Shown: one piece after another, positions 21,208 through 49,394 of the stretch
Layout of the letters: every line of letters starts with the position of its first letter
How positions within the stretch are numbered: position 1 is the first letter of the stretch
NCBI GenBank assembly: GCA_039698055.1
Contig: JBDKTL010000043.1
Location: 31,606-95,605 of the forward strand
DNA from: Methanoregula sp.
GTDB lineage: Archaea > Halobacteriota > Methanomicrobia > Methanomicrobiales > Methanospirillaceae
DNA length: 64,000 nt
Direction: 5' to 3'
Program-made: the position numbers and the translations under genes
The notes under the pieces: generated by a model
Database searches by the model: none
The model's input: only the letters and a program-made list of their open reading frames with translations
Told to the model about the DNA's origin: nothing

Positions 21208-21537
21208 CTAAGTGGGTCTGTAGCTTAGTTCGGCATAGCGGCGGACTCTTAATCCGCAGGTCAAGGGTTCAAATCCCTTCAGGCCCGTTTTCTTTTGTGA
21301 TTCTGACTCTCGCAGAGTTTTATTTGATTTTTCATTCGGTTTAAACTCATTATTTCTGATTTCGGTTATGTCAGTTTCGACATTTTTCAAATTCAACGGT
21401 TTAAACTCGTTAGATTCTGTTGATAGGAAGAAACCACCATCAACCTTGCAGATGGATACAGGCTTACCGATAAGTGCGCGATAATGACTCCAAGGGAACT
21501 GGATATAAGGAGCGAGGAATCCTTTCTTTGGATGCAA
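21208..21537 (-). pseudogene. Putative N-terminal fragment int(N) of a split tyrosine integrase, reading into the tRNA antisense
   Basis: ORF runs through the tRNA complement (...KKTGLKGFEPLTCGLRVRR), the geometry expected for SSV1-type int(N); same strand as int(C) at the far end. Confidence 0.55.
21214..21287 (+). tRNA. tRNA-Lys(CTT)
   Basis: GGGTCTG/CAGGCCC acceptor stem, anticodon arm GCGGA-CTCTTAA-TCCGC, GGTTCAAATCC T-loop; CCA not encoded. Confidence 0.95.
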
Positions 21538-21671
21538 TTTTTTAAATTGAGTTTTCGTAATTAATTCTATATTTTACAATAGATTTTAGAAAGATTATAG
21601 ATTATCATACGGTGAAAAAAATTGCTTTATGGAAGAGAGATTGATTAAAGAATAAGACGAGAATATAAATT

Positions 21672-21860
21672 ATGTCATTATACGATACAATTGTTCAAGC
21701 AGTCGGGGCATTATTTATTATCTATATTTTCGGATTTGTTGTTCTACCAGCGTTTGCGACCGCTACAGGTCAAAGCACATTACTTTTCACAATATTATTC
21801 ATTTTACTCGCTATAAGCGTCGTCATTAGCGTTATTGTAGCAATCAAAAGGAGCCTTTAA
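21672..21860 (+). CDS. Small 2-TM hypothetical protein (island)
   Basis: 62 aa, two hydrophobic helices, 1 bp before the next ORF. Confidence 0.6.
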   Translation: MSLYDTIVQAVGALFIIYIFGFVVLPAFATATGQSTLLFTILFILLAISVVISVIVAIKRSL

Positions 21861-21861
21861 C

Positions 21862-22491
21862 ATGGTATTAAAAGAATTAGATCACTATTTTGGAATATAT
21901 AGGGATCTTGTTATCGGTTTAACCTTTCTAGTAGCTCTTGCTGCAATAACAGGTTTTAAATTGGATATCCCCACTTGGTTCAATTCCTTAACACCTGAAG
22001 GTAAATTCTATTCACTTATTCTTCTCGATGCAATTTTTACGCTATTTGTAGGATATGTGATTTATTCGAAGTTGGATGAGAAAATTCAGGGGATAAGAAC
22101 TACAAATTCGGGTATAGAAATAAAACCAATTTTCCTTTCAGAAATCAGAGCATTAAAGATACAATTAGAACCGATTATTGCAGCACAAACTGATATGACC
22201 ACTTTGAGTAAAATAATCATGAAGGATTTTGGCAATGGGATGCCAAAATTTTATCCTAATAATGGAGCTTTCCATTTATACAAAGAAAAAATACCACTTC
22301 TTGATTTTGATTTACAGTCTAAACTTTTGCAGTTCTATCAAAAAATAACTCAAGCAAGTGAATGCCATCAACAGATCTTCCAAAAAGACCCTTCAAGAGC
22401 CGATTATACAAAAATTCAATGTTTTAGCAATTATTTGAAAGAAGCGAATGATCTGATACCCCATCTCCTTGAGAAACTACAGTCGTCCTGA
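21862..22491 (+). CDS. Hypothetical protein with 2 N-terminal TM helices (island)
   Basis: 209-aa ORF in AT-rich DNA; no recognisable motif. Confidence 0.7.
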   Translation: MVLKELDHYFGIYRDLVIGLTFLVALAAITGFKLDIPTWFNSLTPEGKFYSLILLDAIFTLFVGYVIYSKLDEKIQGIRTTNSGIEIKPIFLSEIRALKIQLEPIIAAQTDMTTLSKIIMKDFGNGMPKFYPNNGAFHLYKEKIPLLDFDLQSKLLQFYQKITQASECHQQIFQKDPSRADYTKIQCFSNYLKEANDLIPHLLEKLQSS

Positions 22492-22686
22492 AATATTAGA
22501 ATAATTTTGTTTTCGTCTAATCTGTGTCACGTAAGGAACACCAATCTTTTCTGCAATCTCCTTGTAGTTCATTCCATCTTTGTGAAGAAGATCAACATAC
22601 TTCCAATCGATATCTTTGAAGGGTCTACCGCAATGTTTCCCCTCATCCCTTGCTCTTTGCATTCCAACCTTTGTCCTCTCAATAAA
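22477..22686 (-). pseudogene. C-terminal remnant of a serine resolvase/invertase
   Basis: IERTKVGMQRARDEGKHCGRP + HTH (MNYKEIAEKIGV); catalytic N-terminus absent, in-frame stop immediately upstream. Confidence 0.75.
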
Positions 22687-22745
22687 TTACATGCAGCTTT
22701 TCAGTTAATACTGAAACTTGAGTTTATTATCGCTATCTCTAACCC

Positions 22746-24191
22746 TCAATTCCTATTCTTGATTAATTCGGTTGCTTGAATTACCCCTTTCTCACTTAAG
22801 ACATTAAGTAAAACATCGTGTGCTTTTCGGACACCTTTTCCTCCACCTAAGAATGCAAAGGGTGAAGTTTGTTTATCCCAATCAAAATCATCTAAAAGTC
22901 CGAGGAATTTCTTAATTGAATCCTTATCGTAGGGATCTAGATTATCGCTAATACACCAAGAGTAAACATTATTTGCAAGATAATTAAATGCGTAAATCGA
23001 GGTTGTTCGAAGCATCAAGAATTGTTTCCGTGTTTTTTCTTCGAACGTTTGAGGGAACATTTCTCTGATACAACCCCAATAATTTATTAAAAATGTCTTT
23101 TTCTGATCAAAATCCAATTCTTTAAACCGATTATTATCAAAAAGTGGTTTCAACGACGATACAAAGGAGAATAATGGCACCGGATGCCCATTACTCATTG
23201 TTCCACCGAGATTGATGAGCCCTTGAAATGGTGATGATTCTTTATTAAGTTCGTTTACAATGGGAACAATTTCTGTTCTCCATTTTTCCTTATCAATAAT
23301 CGGAATCCCAGTAATCCCTGCCTTTAGTGTTTTATATGCTAATTCATCTTTTAAGGAGGGATTGACGGGTTTTTGAGTTTTATTAATAATAAAGAAAAAT
23401 GCACCCTCTAATTCGGACTGTTTGATTTTCAGATTTTCAGGCGATTCTTTTTCCATTTTTTTAATTATTGCTTTAGAATCGACGAAAACAATTGGGATTT
23501 CAAAAGACAACAATTCCGTGTATTTTTTTATCAATTCTTCTCGATTGGGTAATGAGTGCTTCGTCTGCAGTTTTTTGATTTCTTTATAGATCTCCTCAAA
23601 TCCACCGGTTCTTTGCTGTCCGTCCAAAATTGAAATTGCCCCGGGTTTCAATGGAATTTCAAGAATTCCCCTATCATCATCAGAGGATTTGAATTTTGCA
23701 TTACCAAAACTTGCTAATATTGCTGGAATAATAGAGATAGAACAACCTTCGAGATATTTTTTTATTTCACTTGTTCTTTCACGGAATTTCTCTCGTTGAT
23801 ATCCATCCAATACCTCGTCTCTCCACTGGTCAGAGGTAGATAATAACAAAAGTTCCTTCGCCTGGACTTTACCAATATAAAGGGGCATTCCTTTTTGTTG
23901 AATTTTGATTACCTTAATCTTCAGAGTTACATCAGAGATTTTTTTCCATACTTTTTCCAAATTTTGCGATTGGATTTTGGGATAATTCCTATAGATATCA
24001 ATTATTTCGATGACACTGAGATTGTTAAAATCGCTTGTTATCTCGTTCTGTGCAATCTTCTCTAAAGTATCATTCATTTTATCAGGGAAGAATAATGCAG
24101 GATTATTCCAGCAGTTCTCACAGACATATCTTCCATCATAGGGGCCGTGTTGGGGTCCTTTAATCTCAAATCCACATGAGGAACAAATCAT
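22746..24191 (-). CDS. DGQHR/DndB-like domain protein (DGQQR variant) with N-terminal CxxC-CxxC zinc finger
   Basis: GYQR..., ILDGQQRTGG, FFIINKTQKPVNPSL motifs; CSSC...CENC at the N-terminus; ATGA overlap with the upstream radical SAM gene. Confidence 0.85.
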   Translation of the reverse strand: MICSSCGFEIKGPQHGPYDGRYVCENCWNNPALFFPDKMNDTLEKIAQNEITSDFNNLSVIEIIDIYRNYPKIQSQNLEKVWKKISDVTLKIKVIKIQQKGMPLYIGKVQAKELLLLSTSDQWRDEVLDGYQREKFRERTSEIKKYLEGCSISIIPAILASFGNAKFKSSDDDRGILEIPLKPGAISILDGQQRTGGFEEIYKEIKKLQTKHSLPNREELIKKYTELLSFEIPIVFVDSKAIIKKMEKESPENLKIKQSELEGAFFFIINKTQKPVNPSLKDELAYKTLKAGITGIPIIDKEKWRTEIVPIVNELNKESSPFQGLINLGGTMSNGHPVPLFSFVSSLKPLFDNNRFKELDFDQKKTFLINYWGCIREMFPQTFEEKTRKQFLMLRTTSIYAFNYLANNVYSWCISDNLDPYDKDSIKKFLGLLDDFDWDKQTSPFAFLGGGKGVRKAHDVLLNVLSEKGVIQATELIKNRN

Positions 24192-25270
24192 TTCGATGCA
24201 CCCTTCTTTTTTTCGGCATATAATTCAAAAGCTTCTTCGAAATCCGTAGCTCTGTTAAATTTGTTCACAAGTCCGTCATACGCCGGAAATGCACCACCAT
24301 ATCCAATGACTCTTCGTGCATGTTGAACAAGTTCGATTTTATTCATATCCCAATTTGGAGAAATAAAAGTATTTTTCTCGATTGCGTAGAGAGATTCATA
24401 CCTCATAGGATAACATACGATACCCCAGTTTAAGATTTCCCGAACGCGATTAAAAAATTCATCTGGTGTCTCTCTATAGTTGAAAAGAGTATACACAAAA
24501 ATATCCCTTTTTTTAATACCGGCATCAAGTAAACGCTCAACAGCCTTTTTTACAAATTTTTGTTGATCATGAGAATCATACGCAAGCCGTATGGTAGAAT
24601 CAAGTTTTAGAGAAGCGATCATTTTTGCAACGGGCTCTGTGATGAGTTTTGCATCAATACCCTGATTGAAGTCAACCTTTTTATCGAAATCGATGAGTTC
24701 CTTAAAAATATCCATACGGTATTTGTTTGCAAGAAAATTGTTGTCAAAAAAAATAATTTTTGTATGTCTACCCAGAACAAATGGGTTGATGCTCTTTTTC
24801 AGTGAATTCATTTTTCCTTCTAAACGAGGAACAGCACAAAAATCACATTTATTGCAGCAACCTCTTGACGAGAAAATAATACTTCCATCCCAATCTGGGA
24901 CTAAATCATAATCCGGGAAAATATTCTCGGCTTTTGAACAGAGACCTTGGTATATTCGATCGGCACCGGATAGTCTTGCATGATCAGGAAGGAGGGATGC
25001 ATAGATGCCCCCAAGCCAAATTTCCGCTTTTGGAAATTCTTTTTTGTAAAATGAAACTGCCTCCCAAACTGGCTTCCACGCCCATGAGAATAGACTGGTG
25101 ACGTATATTTTATTAGGATTCGTTTTCGGAATTCTTTGATCCTTTTTTTCGAAATCAATTAATTCCGTTGTATCACCTTTTGTTTTATGGTATGCAGAAA
25201 GTTTTAAGAGACCAATTGGCGGGAATTTGGAATAATATGCGGGTTCGACGAGAAGTATGTGATTGGTCAT
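24188..25270 (-). CDS. Radical SAM protein with B12-binding-like N-terminal domain
   Basis: ILLVEP..FPPIGLLKLSAYHK, IWLGGIYASL, SRGCCNKCDFC (CxxxCxxC), FFDNNFLA, DFNQGIDA. Confidence 0.9.
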   Translation of the reverse strand: MTNHILLVEPAYYSKFPPIGLLKLSAYHKTKGDTTELIDFEKKDQRIPKTNPNKIYVTSLFSWAWKPVWEAVSFYKKEFPKAEIWLGGIYASLLPDHARLSGADRIYQGLCSKAENIFPDYDLVPDWDGSIIFSSRGCCNKCDFCAVPRLEGKMNSLKKSINPFVLGRHTKIIFFDNNFLANKYRMDIFKELIDFDKKVDFNQGIDAKLITEPVAKMIASLKLDSTIRLAYDSHDQQKFVKKAVERLLDAGIKKRDIFVYTLFNYRETPDEFFNRVREILNWGIVCYPMRYESLYAIEKNTFISPNWDMNKIELVQHARRVIGYGGAFPAYDGLVNKFNRATDFEEAFELYAEKKKGASK

Positions 25271-25331
25271 CAAGGATAGGTTAGTGATCTACATTATTTA
25301 AGATCTTTTATTTTGAAGATCCCAAAAGCGA

Positions 25332-27695
25332 CTATGAAGAGGGTGTTGGAGGAGATGCCAATCTTGGTTTTAACACATCATAGATCATGGTGACATACTC
25401 CAAATCTTGAGCTGTAACACCCTTTGGTTTTATCGAATGAGCAACCTGTTTGCGGATGTTATTGAGTTTGGTGAACCAAGATAATTTTTTCGATTTGCTA
25501 TCATTAGGTTTTGAATTAATTGAAAACGTTTCACCAAATAGACTCCACTCGGAATCGATTATTTCCTTCAAATCAATTAAATCAATGAACTTTTCGTAAT
25601 CGTTCAATTCTCCTTCTTCATCAGCCCGTTTCATGGCTTTTGCCCTAATTGGGGATGAAACTTTAAACCACCATTGAGAACGTTCATTTCCATAATTTGC
25701 TTTTAAGGTACTGAAAACATAATCGTGAACCATAGGTTCAATTTTATCCAGAACGATTTCCCTAGTTGCTTGATTAATCGATGGATCCTTCTTCTTCAAC
25801 CACTCTTTTAAAATTTCAGGCTCAAATTCCGGGTATTGCTCATGAATCTTCGAGAGTAATACTAAAGTACTATCTTTCACCCCTACTTCACCAGTGCCAC
25901 GTCGCAATTCTGAACGAACTTGGGGGGGGATATCAGCTAAAAATTTAATGACAGGTGTGACGTATTTCTCGGTATGCTCAAGAAGAACAGGAGTTTTTAA
26001 CTTTCTTGGGTCAACCTGGTCTTTAATAGAAATATGGTCGAAAATAAATTTCAGTGTTTTCAATGTTGATAATATGCCCAGATTTGTACAGATGAACCCG
26101 CCATCACCGCTTCCAATATCCCATTGAGTTTTTACTTTATCGTTTTTCAGAAATAACGAATAATAACCGCTAATTACTTCGACCCCTCTTATCAACGTTG
26201 AATCCAGATCATTATGGTATAAAGGCCCATGCGTGATGTCATGAGTTTTCTTATTCAAGACTTCACCGAATAGACGATCTTTTTTCATTTCTGTGACTAG
26301 TCCGGTCAATGTTAAATTCCGGTTTTTGGTTTTATTTCCTCCAACTTTTATGACCTTGTCTCTCAAGGGAGAGTTTTTGTCTTTATCTAGTTGTTTTACT
26401 AAATTTGCAAGTAAAGCGTCCAAACGAAGATTTGGATCATCTGAATTCCAATTTAATTCAGAGTGAAGGTCTAATAATTGGTTTTTTGGTACTTTTACTT
26501 GTTCTCCATTAATGTCAATAAATAACTGAGCTTGTGTTGCTGAATCTAAATTTTCAAAAGCTATAACAGGAATCGTTGCCGTCTTCGCCTCTTCCAAATT
26601 TGCGAAGGCAAATAAACGGTGTTGACCATCAATAACTTGTGCACATTGATATATATTCGGTAAATACAACTTCCCAAGAACTGCATTTTGTCCAGCCATA
26701 TCGGCGGCTTTATCGAATCTTAGCGGACTGTCAGTTCGAATATTTAGAACAATATTTGTTGGAAAAATTCCCTTCTTGTCCCGAATGTATTCTGCGATTT
26801 TATTCAATCGCTTCTTTTTGGCCATTCTTTGATATGAATCGAGAGATTCAATATTTCTTTTACCTCTGTGAGCGATATATGCTAATTTAAGCAATTTGTC
26901 AGGTTCGATTACAAAAGAGTAGAATTCTTTTTCGCCCATTGTTCCTTTCATAGCCGGGATTGAATCGATTAAATTTGGGATCTCTCGTTTTTCTAGGAAA
27001 TCGGATAAAAATTGGTATTTTGCGGCGTGACCAAAATGTTTCGAAAACTCATTGTAATAATCTAAAAGCGGATCATCAATGATGAAAATATTTGCCAGAT
27101 CGGCCCGTTGCCTATCATTATCATTTATATCGATATTTTTCGTTGCAAGAATCCATACAAATTTAAATTTTTGAGGTTCCCCCTTATCATTATAATATTG
27201 ATTAATTGAGAGATCAATATCTCTTCGAATTGCTTCTATTTCAGTAATATCTGTGTTTAACGATTTTTTTGTATGTTGTTCTTCTGCAGATTTACATTCT
27301 ACAATACAGATACATTGATCTTCCCTTGCGAAAACATCGATTTGTTTTGTGATGTTGGATTCAAATCTAGGGATAACAAAATTTTTTGATTCTTTATTCA
27401 TTTCAAAAAAGCCCATGCGGTAAAAAATACACCACACTTCATCCTCAAAACCAGAACCAATATCCTTCAGTTTCCTTAATTTAATATGTGTTTTACTTCG
27501 GCTACGGACTTTTTCCCACTTATCATTCAAGAATGATGAAATATCTTGTTTAACTACATTTTTTGACACATATTTTTGATTTCTTTTACTATATGCCCGA
27601 TCAAGATCCTCTCCTGACACAAGACCTTGGAACGGCGACAACGACGTTTTTGTTTCAGCACCATTCTTTTTTGAAGGAGTGGAATTTCTGACCAT
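25332..27695 (-). CDS. Multidomain protein: PD-(D/E)xK nuclease-like + DGQHR + C-terminal HEPN-like domain
   Basis: QIDVFA..IVECKS (D..ExK), SYQR, FPTNIV, VIDGQHRLFAF, LFIDINGEQVKV, and NNIRKQVAH (Rx4H) near the C-terminus. Confidence 0.85.
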   Translation of the reverse strand: MVRNSTPSKKNGAETKTSLSPFQGLVSGEDLDRAYSKRNQKYVSKNVVKQDISSFLNDKWEKVRSRSKTHIKLRKLKDIGSGFEDEVWCIFYRMGFFEMNKESKNFVIPRFESNITKQIDVFAREDQCICIVECKSAEEQHTKKSLNTDITEIEAIRRDIDLSINQYYNDKGEPQKFKFVWILATKNIDINDNDRQRADLANIFIIDDPLLDYYNEFSKHFGHAAKYQFLSDFLEKREIPNLIDSIPAMKGTMGEKEFYSFVIEPDKLLKLAYIAHRGKRNIESLDSYQRMAKKKRLNKIAEYIRDKKGIFPTNIVLNIRTDSPLRFDKAADMAGQNAVLGKLYLPNIYQCAQVIDGQHRLFAFANLEEAKTATIPVIAFENLDSATQAQLFIDINGEQVKVPKNQLLDLHSELNWNSDDPNLRLDALLANLVKQLDKDKNSPLRDKVIKVGGNKTKNRNLTLTGLVTEMKKDRLFGEVLNKKTHDITHGPLYHNDLDSTLIRGVEVISGYYSLFLKNDKVKTQWDIGSGDGGFICTNLGILSTLKTLKFIFDHISIKDQVDPRKLKTPVLLEHTEKYVTPVIKFLADIPPQVRSELRRGTGEVGVKDSTLVLLSKIHEQYPEFEPEILKEWLKKKDPSINQATREIVLDKIEPMVHDYVFSTLKANYGNERSQWWFKVSSPIRAKAMKRADEEGELNDYEKFIDLIDLKEIIDSEWSLFGETFSINSKPNDSKSKKLSWFTKLNNIRKQVAHSIKPKGVTAQDLEYVTMIYDVLKPRLASPPTPSS

Positions 27696-27745
27696 GCAAA
27701 CAACTTAACTTCACCGAATGCTGAAATTAACCTTTCTATTACCTT

Positions 27746-28260
27746 TCAAGATTTCGAATTAAAATATTGAATTCTTACCGATCCCCAATGCTCCATGAAC
27801 CTCTTATAAACGTTCTCCAGCAGAAATTGTTTATAAGATGTCCAATTAATCGAATTGACACCATGAGACATTATAAAGTTCTTATTAGCGTCGTTGAATC
27901 CGATCTCATCTGACTTCTGCTCGAAGAATTTACGGAGATCCTTTAATTGGAGATTGCCCATTGTCTATGAGAGTGGAACTGAATTTCGTGATAACCATTG
28001 TTTCAAGCCCTCATAACTAAACAAACCCTCATCAGATGATCTTCCTTCAATAGCATCAATGAGGTGTGGAATAATTAACTGATGAAGTGGAGCGTAGTGT
28101 TCTAATCGAATTTTATCTTGCCTTGCTTGAACAGTTAAGACAGGAGGAGATCGGTTCAGCGCATCACGGAACTGTCCAACGGTAATCCTGCATGCTGTTA
28201 TTACTCTCTGACCTGAATATGCAAGAAATAGGATAGCGCAGCAATAGTTTTGTTTTTTTG
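27746..28260 (-). pseudogene. C-terminal fragment int(C) of a tyrosine integrase with an internal TAG
   Basis: AYSGQR (Arg I), QDK (Lys), KDLRKF (HxxR-like), MSHG, TSY (Tyr). In-frame TAG at 27965-27967 splits it; 5' part truncated. Confidence 0.85.
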
Positions 28261-28277
28261 GTCCATCCCAATTTTTT

Positions 28278-29069
28278 TTACCAGAACTCGAACGCACCCA
28301 TACCAAGGTTGCCCCAGTACCAGCTCTGGTGGATAATTTTTCCCTTTGCATCCGGCCCGGCTGCGCCAAGCGCCGTAAAGAGCGGCATGAAATGGTCGGG
28401 ATAATACTGGGCGTGGATGGCCGATGGTGCGAGCTCACGGTAGCTGATCAGGCTCTTTTTGTCACCATACGTCACTGCCCGGTTCAGCCACTCGTTGAAC
28501 GCGATCGCCCAGATCTCAGTCCGTAGTCCTTCACCCAGTGCAACCGTCGGATCGCCAAGCGGGTGAACCGCCCCGCCGCTGCCGATGACGAGCACGCCTT
28601 CCTTCCGGAGGGGAGCGATTGCTTCGCCGAGTGCGAGGTGAAGAGCCGGGTCAAGATGATCCTGGATCGATAACTGGACTACCGGAACCGTAGCATCCGG
28701 GAACATCAGCATTGACGGGACCCATGCCCCATGGTCGAGCCCCCGCCCGGTATCCCTGTCGCAGGGAAGTCCTGCTGCTTCAACAAGGCCGGCAACCCGT
28801 CGGGCAAGATCCGGGGAGCCCGGCGCCGGGTAGGTAATCCGGTAGAGTTCATCGGGAAATCCGTAGAAATCGTGAATGGTCGGGGGACGGGCAATCGTGT
28901 TCACCGAAGGACGGGTTGTGTTCCAATGCGCCGATACGCAGAGCACGGCACTAATATCCGTAAAATGTTTTCCAAGCCCAGCAAGAAACCTGCGGGCCGG
29001 CACTCCCTGTTCCAGCGCGAGGGTTGGTGCACCGTGTGACACAAAAAGAGTGGGAAGGGAATCCGGCAT
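28278..29069 (-). CDS. LigB-family (DODA/YgiD-like) extradiol dioxygenase
   Basis: FVSHGAP, SAHW, IHDFYGFP, RGLDHGAWVP, PVVQLS, GSGGAVH, DHFMPL. Confidence 0.9.
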   Translation of the reverse strand: MPDSLPTLFVSHGAPTLALEQGVPARRFLAGLGKHFTDISAVLCVSAHWNTTRPSVNTIARPPTIHDFYGFPDELYRITYPAPGSPDLARRVAGLVEAAGLPCDRDTGRGLDHGAWVPSMLMFPDATVPVVQLSIQDHLDPALHLALGEAIAPLRKEGVLVIGSGGAVHPLGDPTVALGEGLRTEIWAIAFNEWLNRAVTYGDKKSLISYRELAPSAIHAQYYPDHFMPLFTALGAAGPDAKGKIIHQSWYWGNLGMGAFEFW

Positions 29070-45215: not shown

Positions 45216-46106
45216 TTATTTCCCGATCGCAAGAAGCATCTCTTCAAGCGACGGGTACCGGGACTCGATCCGCTCCACCCGGCCGCCCGCTTCCGTGATC
45301 GCCGTCGAACACTCGTTGAGCTCGCTGATGTCCTGCACTTCACAGACCCAGAACCCCTCTTCCTGACGGTAGGGTTTGGCATGGCCAAGCAGCGTGCCCG
45401 GGTCATCGATGGAGAAAAATATCGTATAGGTGATCGACCCGAACTGGTCGCGGAGCTCGTGCATAGTTCCGAATGCGGCCATCTTCCCGCGCCGGAGGAT
45501 CATCACCTTGTCGCAGATCGCCTCCACCTGGTAGAGGTTGTGTGCCGAAAGCACGATCGTCTTGCCCTCTTTTTTAAGCGTGCGAAGATAGTCGGAGATG
45601 AACCGGGAGGTCATCGGGTCAAGCCCGCTTGTCGGTTCATCATACACCAGAAACGACGGGTCGTGGATGAGCGAACGGGCGATCGCCACCTTGCGCTTCA
45701 TCCCTTTTGAGAACTCCCCGATTTTTTTGCCATCCGGTTCAAGCGTCAGCGCCGCAAAGAGCTGGCGGGACCGCACCGCGATCTCCTGCGGGGAAAGCCC
45801 ATAGATCTCGCCAAAGAATGCAAGGTAGTTCTCTGCGGTCATCGTCTCGTAGAGCCGGGATTCTTCAGGAAGATAACCAAGCATTTCCTTGAGCGCGATC
45901 GGGTTTTTCACGACATCGATATCATTGATGCAGAGTTCGCCTTTTGTCGGCGCCACAAGGCCGGTCACGATCTTCAGCAGCGTTGTCTTGCCGGCGCCGT
46001 TGTGCCCGATAATGCCGAAGATCTCACCGTCATCAAATGAGAAGCTGACGTCATCGAGCGCCAGAAAGCCTTCGTATTGTTTTGTCAGGTTCTTTGCCGT
46101 GATCAT
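45216..46106 (-). CDS. ABC transporter ATP-binding protein
   Basis: GHNGAGKTT Walker A, FSKGMKRK signature, YDEPTSGLD Walker B. Confidence 0.95.
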   Translation of the reverse strand: MITAKNLTKQYEGFLALDDVSFSFDDGEIFGIIGHNGAGKTTLLKIVTGLVAPTKGELCINDIDVVKNPIALKEMLGYLPEESRLYETMTAENYLAFFGEIYGLSPQEIAVRSRQLFAALTLEPDGKKIGEFSKGMKRKVAIARSLIHDPSFLVYDEPTSGLDPMTSRFISDYLRTLKKEGKTIVLSAHNLYQVEAICDKVMILRRGKMAAFGTMHELRDQFGSITYTIFFSIDDPGTLLGHAKPYRQEEGFWVCEVQDISELNECSTAITEAGGRVERIESRYPSLEEMLLAIGK

Positions 46107-46372
46107 AGAGTCTGCCTGAATCGATCAGACTTGTGCTGTATGAAAGATAATAGTTGGGATAAAGCCAACCTGGTGCCTGAACCGCCGTCAGGATCGCTGT
46201 CGCACAAAAAGAGAATTTCGTGCGCGAGAGCGGGTATGAACGCCCGCCAGTATCACCCATACGTTTTCTCGGCCCTGAAGAAATGCTATTTTTCGAAATG
46301 AAAATAAACAGTTCTACAGATGTGAAATTTAATCGATGGATTTAGAATATGATATAATAATATAATATTACG

Positions 46373-47389
46373 ATGCGAGTATTGGGACGTTTGTTCCTTG
46401 CCATCCTCTTTGTGGCGATAATAATGGTTCCGTTCGTGAGTGCTGACGCGACTGTAACTCACAACACAACTCCGTTCATTACAATTGATCCTATTGGGAA
46501 CCACGCCATTGGCGAAGTTTTCGTTATTAAAGGCACGACGAATCTGCCCCCGGTGATTGATTCTCTTCTTATCTTGATTGATCCAACAACTTTTAATCCG
46601 AGCGGATTTAGTTCCAGTTTCCAGGCAACAGTTCCCATCCAGCGGGGAGAAAAAGACATGAATTTCTGGTCGTGTACTGTCCCGACAACAACAAGATGGG
46701 TGAATTTCCAACCACGTGGAAGGGGTCCCAATCAGGATCCACGTCCAGATAATTATAGGGTAACAGTCGAATCATCGACGGACACCAATATAAGCCAGTT
46801 CCAGTTATTCGATATTTTACCGGCAGGATCGAATACCAATTCAACAATTTCACCAGCTCCAACCCTGTTTATCAAAATTGATCCTATCGGGAACCATACG
46901 GTCGGGAACGTGTTCTTCATTAACGGGACAACAAGTTTGCCAGATTCAAATGACTCTCTCACCCTTTTCATCGGATGGGCCGATTTTAACTCTGCAGGAG
47001 TGGGAGTACCTTTTTACAGGTCAAATATATCTATAAGGGCCGGCGAGAATGGGGTCAATGCCTGGTCTGCTGAAATCATACCCTCCCGATGGGAAATGAT
47101 CAATGAATCATCTTCAGAATCATCCAATCCAACACCCACGTTCGAAAAGGCAAGACCCGGCAAATATGTTGTCTATGTTGGTTCTTTAGTATCTCAGGAT
47201 CCTGCACCAGCATTTTTTTATGTTAATCAGGAAAGCAAAATTACTCCAGGTCAGACATTCGGTGCAACCGCAACGTTTTCCTCCACACCCTCTCCTGCTC
47301 CCACTCAATCTTCCCCTCTTTCCACGCTGTTGCCAATCGTTGTTTTTGTAAGTATGCTGGTCTTGAAATTTATTCTAAAAGAAAAGTGA
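46373..47389 (+). CDS. Secreted surface protein with two IDPIGNH..GTT repeats and C-terminal PLS anchor
   Basis: Signal peptide, IDPIGNHAIGEVFVIKGTT / IDPIGNHTVGNVFFINGTT, TQSSPLS + TM + basic tail. Confidence 0.78.
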   Translation: MRVLGRLFLAILFVAIIMVPFVSADATVTHNTTPFITIDPIGNHAIGEVFVIKGTTNLPPVIDSLLILIDPTTFNPSGFSSSFQATVPIQRGEKDMNFWSCTVPTTTRWVNFQPRGRGPNQDPRPDNYRVTVESSTDTNISQFQLFDILPAGSNTNSTISPAPTLFIKIDPIGNHTVGNVFFINGTTSLPDSNDSLTLFIGWADFNSAGVGVPFYRSNISIRAGENGVNAWSAEIIPSRWEMINESSSESSNPTPTFEKARPGKYVVYVGSLVSQDPAPAFFYVNQESKITPGQTFGATATFSSTPSPAPTQSSPLSTLLPIVVFVSMLVLKFILKEK

Positions 47390-47588
47390 TTGCGAGCTGT
47401 TTACAATTGTAATCGGAGATTTTCTACAGAGAGCAGATTTCTCGTTATTTTTTATGCACATTTGTCAGAAGGGTGAAGTATTTTATCCGGTGCCGATATT
47501 ATTCTGTACCAGTACTTCTCATCCTACCGATAGCCGGAGGGGCGGACGCACGGGGGTTTAATAGCAGTACAAAATCTGGTGTCCATAT

Positions 47589-49394
47589 TTGAGTGCCCTT
47601 GCTGATATCTCCACCATCGCGCGATGGGAAATAAAAAAGTCGTTCTCGATGATGTCACGGGACGTCCTGCCGATCGCCATTATTCTTTTTGTCCTGCTGG
47701 TTGCTGTCACCGGGTTTGCCGCACAGAGCGGAATGCACCTGCAGGACGGCATCTACGAGATCGGCGTCGATGACCCGGGTCTCGCCCAGCTGTTCGCATC
47801 CGATGCCCGGTTCACCGTATACGAAACCGATGCCCCCACCCTTGTCATGAACAGGGACACGTTTGACCTGATCGTCATCCACGGGCAGGTCTACGGCATC
47901 ACCTCCGAGAAAGGGAAGGCAGCGATAAAAACTCTGGAGAGGGACTACAGCAAATACGTCAACAGCGTCTATAACCGGGAGGACGATCTCTTCGCCGCAT
48001 ACCCGCTCTGGATCGATGTGCAGGGGGTAAAAAGCGAACTGGACTTCCTGGCCACCCAGAGCGGGGAGTACGTGAAGGCAGCACCAAAGAATGTTGTTCC
48101 GGTTCCTGAAGGCGAGATAAAATCGATCCCCACGCCTTCTCCTACGCTTGAATTTTCCCAGGACCAGTTGCGGCAGGAACTGGTGAAAACATCCTCCAAA
48201 AACACCCAGATCTCCCGGTACACCGATGTCCTCTCATCGGGCAGTTCCATGGGAAATTTCAAGACGCCGTCCCAGCTCTCTCCCCCGCTGCCCTTTGATT
48301 CAATCATCCTTGTCTTTGTCTTCATCTTCCCGCTCTACTTCACCTCGCAGTTTTTCATGATGAGCATCATGAACGAGCGCATCGAAAGAAAAGGCGAGGC
48401 ACTTCTCTCCATGCCGGTAAAAACCTCGTCGATCATCATCGGCAAGATGCTCCCGTACTTTATCGGCATGGTCGCAATATGCGCCGCGCTCACCGTGTAC
48501 ATCAAGGCTTCCCCGCTCATCATCCTCCCCCTCATCCCGATCATCTTCTTCTTTCTGGCCAATGCCCTGCTCATCGGGATGCTCTCCCGCAGTTTCAAGG
48601 AACTCTCGTTTGTCTCCATCTTCTTCTCAACGGTCGCGACCTCGTACCTCTTCTTCCCCAGCATCTTTGCAAACGTCCACATTATCAGCCTTATCTCCCC
48701 GCTCACGCTCATCGTCCTCACCCTGCAGGGAACGGCATGGACCCTCACGGATTTTCTCTACTCAACCTCGCTTTTCTGGCTGACGGGCGCCGTGCTCTTC
48801 TATATCGGGGCAAAGAACTTCAAGGAAGAGCGGCTCTTTTCGGAAAAAGGGTTCCTGCACCGGATCCGTGAGTTCCTCGCAGAAGTCCTCTCGCGCCGGC
48901 ACGCGAACATCTCCCTTTTCCTGCTTGCCGGGTTCTCGATACCGTTTGTCTTCATGGTGCAGATGATGTGCCTCGTGCTCTTCTTCAACCTGCCCATGCC
49001 GTACTCGCTGGTATTCCTGATTGTATTTGCCGCATTCATCGAGGAAATCGTAAAAGCGATCGGGATCTATACGTTCTTTGCCGGCGACCATGACTTCCTG
49101 ACATGGAGAAATCTTGTCCTTGGCTGCGCTGCCACGGCAATCGGCTTTCTTGTGGGGGAAAAACTCCTGCTCTTCATCACCCTTGCCCAGATCACCGAAT
49201 CGGTATTCGGGAGCGTCCTCTTCCTCTCGCTGGGTGCGCTCTGGATGCCGCTCCTCCTGCATTTTGCCGGTGTGTTCATTGTTGCCTGCTGCCTGAAATT
49301 CTGGGGGAAAAAGGGGCTTGTGCCGGGCCTGGCTCTCGCCACCATCATCCACTGCCTGTATAACTTCACGATAATTCTGGGGTGGCTTGGATGA
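47589..49394 (+). CDS. ABC-2 type permease with C-terminal PrsW-like intramembrane protease domain
   Basis: ARWEIKK, MNERIERKGEALL..GKMLPY; EEIVK, GFLVGE, LLH, HCLYN. Confidence 0.8.
   Translation: MSALADISTIARWEIKKSFSMMSRDVLPIAIILFVLLVAVTGFAAQSGMHLQDGIYEIGVDDPGLAQLFASDARFTVYETDAPTLVMNRDTFDLIVIHGQVYGITSEKGKAAIKTLERDYSKYVNSVYNREDDLFAAYPLWIDVQGVKSELDFLATQSGEYVKAAPKNVVPVPEGEIKSIPTPSPTLEFSQDQLRQELVKTSSKNTQISRYTDVLSSGSSMGNFKTPSQLSPPLPFDSIILVFVFIFPLYFTSQFFMMSIMNERIERKGEALLSMPVKTSSIIIGKMLPYFIGMVAICAALTVYIKASPLIILPLIPIIFFFLANALLIGMLSRSFKELSFVSIFFSTVATSYLFFPSIFANVHIISLISPLTLIVLTLQGTAWTLTDFLYSTSLFWLTGAVLFYIGAKNFKEERLFSEKGFLHRIREFLAEVLSRRHANISLFLLAGFSIPFVFMVQMMCLVLFFNLPMPYSLVFLIVFAAFIEEIVKAIGIYTFFAGDHDFLTWRNLVLGCAATAIGFLVGEKLLLFITLAQITESVFGSVLFLSLGALWMPLLLHFAGVFIVACCLKFWGKKGLVPGLALATIIHCLYNFTIILGWLG

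Follow-up and report, generated by a model that had tools for sequence, protein, structure and literature searches.

Organization of the three-gene locus

The element described here is a cluster of three genes in a 64,000-nucleotide (nt) stretch of DNA from Methanoregula sp. (assembly GCA_039698055.1, contig JBDKTL010000043.1, positions 31,606 to 95,605 of the forward strand), referred to below as the window. The genes, carried on the minus strand between positions 22746 and 27695, encode a predicted nuclease with a DGQHR domain (gene 1), a radical S-adenosylmethionine (SAM) enzyme (gene 2) and a zinc-ribbon protein with a second DGQHR domain (gene 3), and together they are a candidate restriction-modification-like defence system. 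An initial annotation, made from the sequence alone, had described three intact and co-oriented genes, and open frames were indeed seen for all three. The motifs it had named (IDVFA..VECK, DGQHR and RKQVAH in gene 1, CxxxCxxC in gene 2, CxxC..CxxC and DGQQR in gene 3) were confirmed in position, and those of genes 1 and 2 are conserved in relatives. The coordinates of all features are collected in Table 1.

Gene 1 combines a PD-(D/E)xK nuclease domain, a DGQHR domain of ParB/Srx-like type, a helical linker and a HEPN-like domain of the Swt1 type, and this nuclease-DGQHR-HEPN architecture is kept throughout its family (~770 amino acids (aa), 1326 clusters). The DGQHR motif corresponds to residues 356-360 and RKQVAH to residues 748-753, with D120, E133 and K135 provided by IDVFA..VECK. 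In an alignment of 43 gene-1 relatives, D120 and DGQHR were invariant and E133, K135 and R748 were at least 90% conserved. The DGQHR model TIGR03187 matched residues 248-472 with 171.4 bits (cut-off 58.85, E = 3.3e-50). No Pfam nuclease family matched gene 1 and a Foldseek search with the full AlphaFold2 model (mean predicted local distance difference test score, pLDDT, 84.3) gave zero matches at E <= 0.001; the domain assignments come from VIA structural alignment (VIA-align). There, residues 19-235 aligned with AF1548 (1y88) at Z 12.1 and a root-mean-square deviation of 2.1 over 116 residues, with the nuclease domains of Can2, Card1 and Cdn1 at Z 8.9-9.8, and with NucS/EndoMS and FokI at Z 7.3-8.3; residues 251-401 aligned with ParB N-domain structures at Z 7.0-7.8.

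The nuclease fold proposed in the initial annotation was thus recovered, whereas the structural match for its HEPN fold was weak: the C-terminal domain aligned with Csm6 HEPN at Z 6.3 and with Roquin ROQ at Z 6.8, a range usual for helical domains. Gene 1 itself matched PF18731 (HEPN_Swt1) with 20.4 bits and E = 6.6e-4, under the cut-off of 27.5, and the PADLOC model PDC-M34B with E = 6.2e-6. The HEPN assignment is firmer because the Rx4H motif is conserved and because 14 of the 43 relatives matched HEPN_Swt1 at E <= 0.01 (best 3.5e-7). Since the catalytic motifs are conserved across these relatives, all three modules of gene 1 look active.

The open reading frame (ORF) of gene 2 spans 24188-25273; its likely start is the ATG at 25270, the next codon after the TTG that the ORF lister had picked. 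The three cysteine residues of the CxxxCxxC motif, C138, C142 and C145, were invariant in both alignments of relatives (17 and 65 sequences). Gene 2 matched phrog_9298, annotated as radical SAM domain protein, over its full length (E = 1e-64), and the Pfam families B12-binding (PF02310, 19.7 bits, cut-off 32.1) and Radical_SAM (PF04055, 14.9 bits, cut-off 29.5) below their thresholds. The AlphaFold2 model (pLDDT 94.9) matched 29 PDB chains at E <= 0.001 in Foldseek, and all those listed are radical SAM enzymes. The best were TsrM, MiaB, AprD4, MgmA, CysS, TokK and OxsB (E = 1e-10 to 2e-6), which act on small molecules (TsrM, AprD4, CysS, TokK, OxsB), tRNA (MiaB) or protein (MgmA). The family is large: at E <= 0.001 it counts at least 1662 protein clusters, of which the best 120 are at least 52% identical, and it is found in at least 481 loci of species genomes.

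Gene 2 shares with class B radical SAM methylases (TsrM, MgmA, CysS, TokK) and with MiaB/RimO a Rossmann-like N-domain followed by a radical SAM barrel (Foldseek E = 1e-10 to 5e-7, template modelling score 0.54-0.68 on the query). It differs from them in being much shorter (360 aa), and in having neither a C-terminal domain nor conserved cysteines in the N-domain: in residues 1-130, no cysteine was found among the invariant or at least 90% conserved columns of the 17 and 65 relatives. A MiaB/RimO methylthiotransferase identity was ruled out because the N-domain has no conserved cysteines for a second Fe-S cluster. The B12-type label that gene 2 had been given reflects a likeness of fold, and the enzyme may depend on cobalamin, judging from the model. 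Viperin was absent among the listed Foldseek matches, an absence that does not exclude a relationship. No PADLOC model matched gene 2. A radical SAM profile searched against the PDB gave MiaB at E = 0.6 and otherwise spurious multi-repeat matches to designer pentatricopeptide repeat (PPR) proteins, none of which had a single passing stretch; these summed matches came from profile positions 325-353, a conserved C-terminal stretch (GYGGAFPxYxGLVxKF...).

Gene 3 carries the zinc ribbon at its N-terminus and a DGQHR domain that matched TIGR03187 over residues 94-408 with 104.4 bits (cut-off 58.85). The DGQQR motif, singled out in the initial annotation as a variant, turned out to be no special feature: in 35 aligned relatives the H/Q position varies by clade within one family, the Bathyarchaeial relatives having DGQHR.

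Pairing of the radical SAM enzyme with the zinc-ribbon DGQHR protein

A 4-nt overlap (24188-24191; ATGA as read on the minus strand) joins genes 2 and 3. We examined the gene neighbourhoods of the radical SAM family in 80 genome loci, the best 80 of at least 481. In 15 of them the gene immediately following the radical SAM gene is a gene-3 homologue, at 34-88% identity; a gene-1 homologue preceded the radical SAM gene in 5/80. The recurrence of the trio, which had been put forward as a check on the initial annotation, was seen in full in L001, L002 and L044, and a metagenome contig (L175) carries the three genes in another order (radical SAM, gene 3, gene 1). In L044, on contig CAWBOH010000006.1 of a metagenome-assembled genome (MAG), the trio is present at 64-88% identity with a whole radical SAM gene and with frameshifts in genes 1 and 3, which are either decay or long-read indel errors.

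A complex of gene 2 and gene 3 was predicted with a median interface score (ipSAE, interaction prediction score from aligned errors) of 0.69 (runs 0.00, 0.69 and 0.71), compared with 0.00 for the best of three controls; the partner pLDDT was at least 71 and the between-run contact agreement at least 0%. In the calibration of the tool, 116/157 solved complexes and 2/215 mismatched pairs reached the mark. The predicted interface on gene 3 comprises residues 2-36 and 62-85, that is, the zinc ribbon and a conserved WNNPxLFFP stretch, and sets the N-terminus of gene 3 near the cluster loop of the enzyme (residues 143-149). The model supports a docking of the zinc ribbon on the radical SAM enzyme. 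The long radical SAM forms (528-560 aa) that adjoin gene-1 relatives end in a helical extension that includes no zinc ribbon, and so offer no fusion as evidence of this contact. On a Thermoplasmata MAG (L020:9104-9508, plus strand), the radical SAM gene is immediately followed by a 134-aa ORF that matched the zinc-ribbon N-terminus of gene 3 only (tblastn 1.5e-8, hidden Markov model 1.6e-7), and the product of this ORF may be a stand-alone adaptor.

These data bear on the possibility that the three genes are chance neighbours in a defence island, or that the radical SAM enzyme serves in repair or housekeeping. Unrelated systems are packed together in defence islands, and the radical SAM family is found in many different contexts. 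Against this stand the 4-nt overlap, an adjacency of genes 2 and 3 kept from 88% down to 34% identity over 15 loci, the retention of the trio in two gene orders, a complex prediction that passes its controls, and a patchy distribution (4 of 41 relatives), and we consider chance association very unlikely.

Exchange of the radical SAM gene and a DNA methylase beside gene-1 relatives

We then turned to gene-1 relatives and examined 80 metagenome loci centred on them, the top-scoring ones among 564 confirmed hits. A D12 (Dam-class) N6-adenine DNA methylase was present in 44/80, within 150 bp of the gene-1 relative in 42 of them and often overlapping it. The radical SAM family was present in 17/80, and no locus (0/80) had both. 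Neither partner was found in 18 loci, 10 of which have less than 900 bp of flank on one side, and in one further locus a second DGQHR gene was the only partner. All 16 methylase candidates tested matched PF02086 (1e-37 to 1e-55). The same coupling was seen in a genome of the same phylum, where a D12 methylase overlaps a gene-1 homologue of 39% identity.

In a FastTree phylogeny of 73 gene-1 proteins (rows of less than 650 aa and exact duplicates left out), methylase and radical SAM labels were interleaved, and well-supported branches forced at least 8 changes of partner. Gene 1 of the window falls in a clade of six rows (support 96) together with two radical-SAM-linked and three methylase-linked proteins, the latter with 50-51% identity to it. 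This repeated and mutually exclusive replacement speaks more strongly than any other observation for the radical SAM enzyme doing the job of the methylase, which would be the marking of self DNA.

The trio resembles the predicted Type II-like pairs of a gene-1-type protein and a D12 methylase in its effector family (at most 51% identity over the full length) and in a tightly coupled partner gene, often overlapping in those pairs. It differs from them in having, in place of a methylase, the radical SAM enzyme and a second DGQHR protein. The SAM-dependent DNA methyltransferase that a classical Type II system requires beside its nuclease was not found on the island: scans of the island ORFs with Pfam, PADLOC, NCBIfam and PHROGs gave no dnd, dpd or methylase gene, which agrees with the initial annotation on the absence of dndCDE, dpdA and methyltransferase genes.

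Other neighbourhoods of the radical SAM family

Partners of other kinds recurred in the 80 genome loci of the radical SAM family. DGQHR proteins were found nearby in 20/80, GHKL ATPases in 21/80, PbeA-like phospholipase D (PLD)-helicases in 13/80 and PbeC in 12/80. A bacterial family of ~340 aa with NPR and EGNxR motifs, present in 18/80, matched Noc/ParB at 1.3e-4; its ParB nature is assigned because of these PDB matches together with the motifs, and a profile-profile comparison with the gene-1 alignment gave nothing (probability 0.2). A ParB/Srx-type partner was present in 36/80 loci, and in 52/80 when GHKL ATPases were added.

DISARM normally has a methylase. In two loci (L003 and L005), DrmA, DrmB and DrmC are followed by an 1116-aa protein and then by homologues of the radical SAM enzyme and gene 3; DrmA of these DISARM-like loci matched PDB 7s9v_A at 1.2e-23, and for the 1116-aa protein of L003 no match was obtained in Pfam, PADLOC or the PDB. 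In the L003 genome, the methylase families PF00145, PF02384, PF01555 and PF02086 gave no match within 129 kb of the radical SAM gene, and they gave none on the contig of L005. From this gene order, the radical SAM and DGQHR pair appears to occupy the place expected for the methylase in DISARM-like clusters. The pair of radical SAM enzyme and gene-3 homologue was also found beside PbeC in 7 loci, 5 of them with PbeA as well (PbeA 3.9e-225, PbeC 5.1e-136), and a distant radical SAM protein lies beside PbeC in 5 further loci, 4 of them with PbeA. Partner exchange and DISARM-like placement both favour the proposal of the initial annotation that the radical SAM enzyme and the DGQQR protein are a putative modification module with gene 1 as effector.

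A radical SAM enzyme that modifies RNA (a tRNA or rRNA that would thereby escape the HEPN ribonuclease) or protein (gene 1 or gene 3, silencing the effector) rather than DNA is a rival reading. MiaB, acting on tRNA, and MgmA, a protein glutamine C-methylase of methanogens, are among the closest folds of gene 2 (E = 1e-10 to 4e-10), gene 1 has a conserved HEPN motif, and the predicted complex brings the N-terminus of gene 3 close to the cluster loop. On the other hand, the partner with which the radical SAM gene is exchanged is a DNA adenine methylase, the DGQHR, ParB-like, DrmABC and PbeAC partners are DNA-directed machines, and the N-domain of gene 2 has no conserved cysteines for a second cluster of the MiaB type. 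RNA or protein as the substrate is in our judgement unlikely.

Two further arrangements were observed in the family. In L014, L018, L020, L021, L033 and L080, a bacterial radical SAM gene is clustered with two ~340-aa ParB-N-like proteins, a ~146-aa protein and a ZorD/DpdE-like SNF2 helicase, which appears to be a further undescribed system with this radical SAM family at its core. In L046, L048, L051, L052 and L067, a distant radical SAM protein (~33-36% identity) adjoins a GHKL ATPase of 634-706 aa and a nucleotide-cyclase-like protein (PF00211 2.1e-5, PycC 1.8e-5); L047 has the cyclase-like gene only.

Viral relatives

Relatives of the radical SAM enzyme were found on at least 513 viral contigs, at ~30% identity and with a length of ~300 aa (phrog_9298), and in 14 named phage records. 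Neighbour clusters with DNA methylases or ParB-methylase-like proteins as their tested members were present in 15, 5 and 4 of 76 viral loci, counts given without a background rate. They are suggestive of an anti-restriction, DNA-marking role of the phage enzymes.

Two other viral contexts were noted. A DUF5131 gene (phrog_2045) lies ~1.4 kb upstream of the phage radical SAM gene in 11/76 loci (for example L082:4846-5619, L097:5247-5936 and L108:6698-7717). In the temperate Thermotogae virus Marinitoga camini virus 1 (L251, KP836355.1, 37383-41209), a radical SAM gene whose product is 44% identical adjoins HerA and NurA-like genes, an arrangement also seen on a Bathyarchaeia contig (L008).

The radical SAM enzyme could instead make or alter a nucleotide-derived small molecule, such as a viperin-like chain terminator or a signal, which the DGQHR domains would bind to switch on the nuclease and HEPN domains of gene 1, giving abortive infection without DNA marking. 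Several observations are in keeping with this: binding of nucleoside triphosphates (NTPs) is predicted or known for ParB/Srx and DGQHR/DGQQR domains (PMC4619093), the nuclease of gene 1 resembles the signal-activated Can2, Card1 and Cdn1 (Z 8.9-9.8) and its C-terminus the HEPN domain of Csm6 (Z 6.3), and distant radical SAM relatives are found near a GHKL ATPase and a cyclase-like protein in 6 loci. A small-molecule product leaves unexplained the exchange of the radical SAM gene with a Dam-type methylase (0/80 with both, at least 8 switches) and its placement behind a methylase-less DrmABC; moreover, no CARF or SAVED-type sensor was matched, and the phage copies sit among DNA methylases. We regard this reading as rather unlikely, and the signal-making alternative of the initial annotation is less well supported than its modification alternative.

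A proposed radical SAM-based modification system

We lean, somewhat beyond an even chance, towards the reading that the trio is a restriction-modification (RM) system, possibly with an abortive infection (Abi) arm, in which gene 1 acts as the effector and self DNA is marked by the radical SAM enzyme with its DGQHR partner. The zinc ribbon of gene 3 would bind the radical SAM enzyme, while its ParB-like DGQHR domain would engage DNA and so bring the enzyme to its substrate, by analogy with DpdB, an ATPase that supports DpdA. The radical SAM enzyme would put a covalent mark on host DNA, perhaps a C-methylation to judge from its class-B-like fold, and this mark would shield the DNA from gene 1. 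Gene 1 would scan DNA with its own DGQHR/ParB-like NTP-binding module, its PD-(D/E)xK domain cutting unmarked DNA and its HEPN domain providing a second, RNA-directed arm. The domain content, the conserved catalytic motifs, the recurrent linkage and the exclusive choice of partner are observed, and DNA as substrate, the kind of mark, the use of cobalamin, the targets of the nuclease arms and antiviral protection are inferred. Such a scheme fits the 'RM+Abi' logic put forward for HEPN fusions (PMC3710099) and the PD-lambda-5 system (PMC9519451).

Several points weigh against this DNA-marking proposal. DNA as the substrate of gene 2 is what we infer, and the nearest solved folds, at 11-16% identity to gene 2, include no enzyme acting on DNA. 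The 80-locus sets are top-scoring samples, not a census, and kinship inflates their counts; 24/80 radical SAM loci have none of the recurrent partners, a D12 methylase is found nearby in 2/80, and in 2/80 the radical SAM gene adjoins a Type IIG enzyme, which carries a methylase domain itself. One of the three gene 2-gene 3 complex runs scored 0.00, the HEPN_Swt1 match of gene 1 lies under its cut-off, and the methylase neighbours of the phage genes are counted with no background rate. The RNA libraries provide weak evidence for transcription of the trio: two metatranscriptome runs, from the study to which the likely source sample belongs, contain 10-14% of the sampled sequence words, and the RNA contigs on genes 3 and 1 (168-284 nt, depth 2-6, zero differences) could be DNA carry-over; no meaning attaches to stretches that are not covered.

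More broadly, the phrog_9298-type radical SAM family may be a DNA-modifying 'M' component that writes a radical-made mark, for instance a C-methylated base. In archaea as well as bacteria it would serve effectors of the gene-1, DISARM-like, Pbe-like, ParB-like and GHKL-based types, and hundreds of phages would carry it as an anti-restriction self-marker. This generalization is tentative, and we place it a little short of even. If correct, it would provide the first radical SAM 'methylase-equivalent' of restriction-modification-type immunity, in a large and well-conserved family, and a function for the nuclease-DGQHR-HEPN effector family; it would also mean that anaerobes and their viruses have a new epigenetic DNA mark, and this mark could also affect base-calling in metagenomic long reads of such organisms.

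Comparison with known defence systems

Genes 1 and 3 had only partial matches in PADLOC-DB v2, to DpdB, DndB, PDC-M34B and DzbA, and with no match for gene 2 the trio corresponds to no named PADLOC system. The likeness to the Dpd and Dnd systems lies in a DGQHR protein that accompanies a DNA-modifying enzyme, and DpdB is the model that genes 1 and 3 matched best in PADLOC. The trio might then be a reduced Dnd (phosphorothioate) or Dpd (7-deazaguanine) system whose DGQHR proteins are DndB or DpdB proper, as the best PADLOC matches (DpdB 1.1e-22 and 3.3e-15, DndB 6e-9) and weak matches to the NCBIfam DpdB and DndB models would allow. The scores are, however, far under the equivalog cut-offs (DpdB NF041060, 75.8 and 51.4 against 300; DndB TIGR03233, 30.9 against 328; TIGR04172, 101.7 against 450), and neither dndACDE nor dpdA or dpdC was found among the island ORFs, the whole genome not having been searched for them. 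Without a DpdA/TGT-like (tRNA-guanine transglycosylase-like), DpdC or DndACDE gene on the island, the modifying enzyme would be the radical SAM protein, and we give a reduced Dnd or Dpd system hardly any credence.

The PD-lambda-5 system, an experimentally validated E. coli prophage system, is presented in PMC9519451 as a compacted RM+Abi system, and shares with the proposed scheme the two-part logic of an effector and a DNA-modifying partner, there a DNA methylase. The PADLOC PD-Lambda-5_B models matched the D12 methylases beside gene-1 relatives (5e-16 to 6e-18), and the PD-Lambda-5_A models weakly matched the N-terminus of the ParB-like partners of the bacterial radical SAM enzymes (1e-4 to 7e-6). 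PD-lambda-5 has no radical SAM enzyme, and its models matched 0/3 window proteins. With DISARM and Pbe (CxC-ABC), the link is the joining of the radical SAM and gene-3 pair to DrmABC or to PbeA/PbeC in other genomes; none of the DISARM or Pbe genes is in the window, whose effector is gene 1. Anti-phage systems with a radical SAM enzyme include Ophion (radical SAM, PHP and phosphoribosyltransferase) and the prokaryotic viperins (bioRxiv 10.1101/2025.09.30.679545), which have other partners and no DGQHR pairing as described in the available part of that preprint; none of them was picked up by PADLOC for gene 2.

The initial annotation had held the combination to be unnamed, and this stands for the trio, in that no PADLOC model covers gene 2 and no description of the trio was met in the literature. 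It does not stand for the nuclease-DGQHR-HEPN fusion, which is in print: DGQHR/DUF262 fusions with PD-(D/E)xK and HEPN domains, and ParB-HEPN fusions in methylase operons, appear in PMC3632139 and PMC3710099. Literature searches found no report of a class B radical SAM enzyme acting on DNA in a defence system, and none of the trio combination or of the radical SAM substitution, which subscription-only papers and Aravind-group supplements could hold. A radical SAM and DGQHR modification module that replaces the methylase in a restriction-modification-like system would be new here and unprecedented.

Genomic setting

The composition profile of the window showed a G+C content of 0.34-0.38 at 21-28 kb compared with 0.51-0.62 in the flanks, with a drop from 0.58 to 0.38 after the tRNA-Lys(ctt) gene detected by ARAGORN, as expected for the AT-rich, tRNA-linked island of the initial annotation. 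The claim that its mobility genes are all broken was borne out in part. A 61-aa ORF (22477-22662) matched positions 147-204 of 254 of the DNA invertase profile phrog_125 (E = 3.9e-5) and is an invertase-like remnant, whereas the supposed integrase remnant (ORF 27965-28438) had zero matches in Pfam, PHROGs and a plasmid tblastn search, and an attachment-site-like direct repeat of the tRNA end was looked for at the far edge of the island and not found. The small island ORFs of 62, 209 and 71 aa had no Pfam or PHROGs match. The spread of the genes is patchy, the radical SAM gene being present in 4/41 related genomes and gene 1 in 7/401 genomes of the phylum.

Table 1 Features of the island in the window (positions of the window).
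Feature	Position	Strand	Basis or remark
Gene 1, 787 aa, predicted restriction/abortive effector	25332-27695	-	open frame, domain matches
Gene 1 PD-(D/E)xK nuclease domain, residues 19-235	26991-27641	-	E84/D85, D120, E133-x-K135
Gene 1 DGQHR domain, residues 246-472	26280-26960	-	motif at 26616-26630; ParB/Srx-like
Gene 1 HEPN-like domain, residues 637-786	25338-25787	-	Rx4H, RKQVAH at 25437-25454
Gene 2, 360 aa, radical SAM with B12-binding-like Rossmann N-domain	24188-25270	-	CxxxCxxC at 24836-24859
Gene 3, 481 aa, zinc ribbon and DGQHR domain	22746-24191	-	predicted DNA-engaging adaptor of the radical SAM enzyme
Gene 3 zinc ribbon, C3, C6, C24, C27	24111-24185	-	CxxC..CxxC
Gene 3 DGQQR, residues 190-194	23610-23624	-	motif; GYQR at residues 130-133
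AT-rich island, ~7 kb	21289-28000	none	composition profile; right edge approximate
tRNA-Lys(ctt)	21213-21288	+	ARAGORN; left edge of island
Small ORFs, 62 aa (hydrophobic) and 209 aa	21672-22491	+	ORF calls
61-aa remnant, C-terminal helix-turn-helix of serine recombinase/invertase-like protein	22477-22662	-	phrog_125 match
Small ORF, 71 aa	27746-27961	-	ORF calls

In the DNA run that may be the source sample, minor-variant contigs part from the window at 21302 and 28231, and a contig of depth 7 (compared with 314) joins 23401 to 28214 with 3 extra letters. These contigs suggest strain heterogeneity or a deletion variant without most of the trio. Outside the island, a second dip in G+C content was seen at positions 46001-48000 of the window (0.45-0.48, compared with ~0.55 around it).

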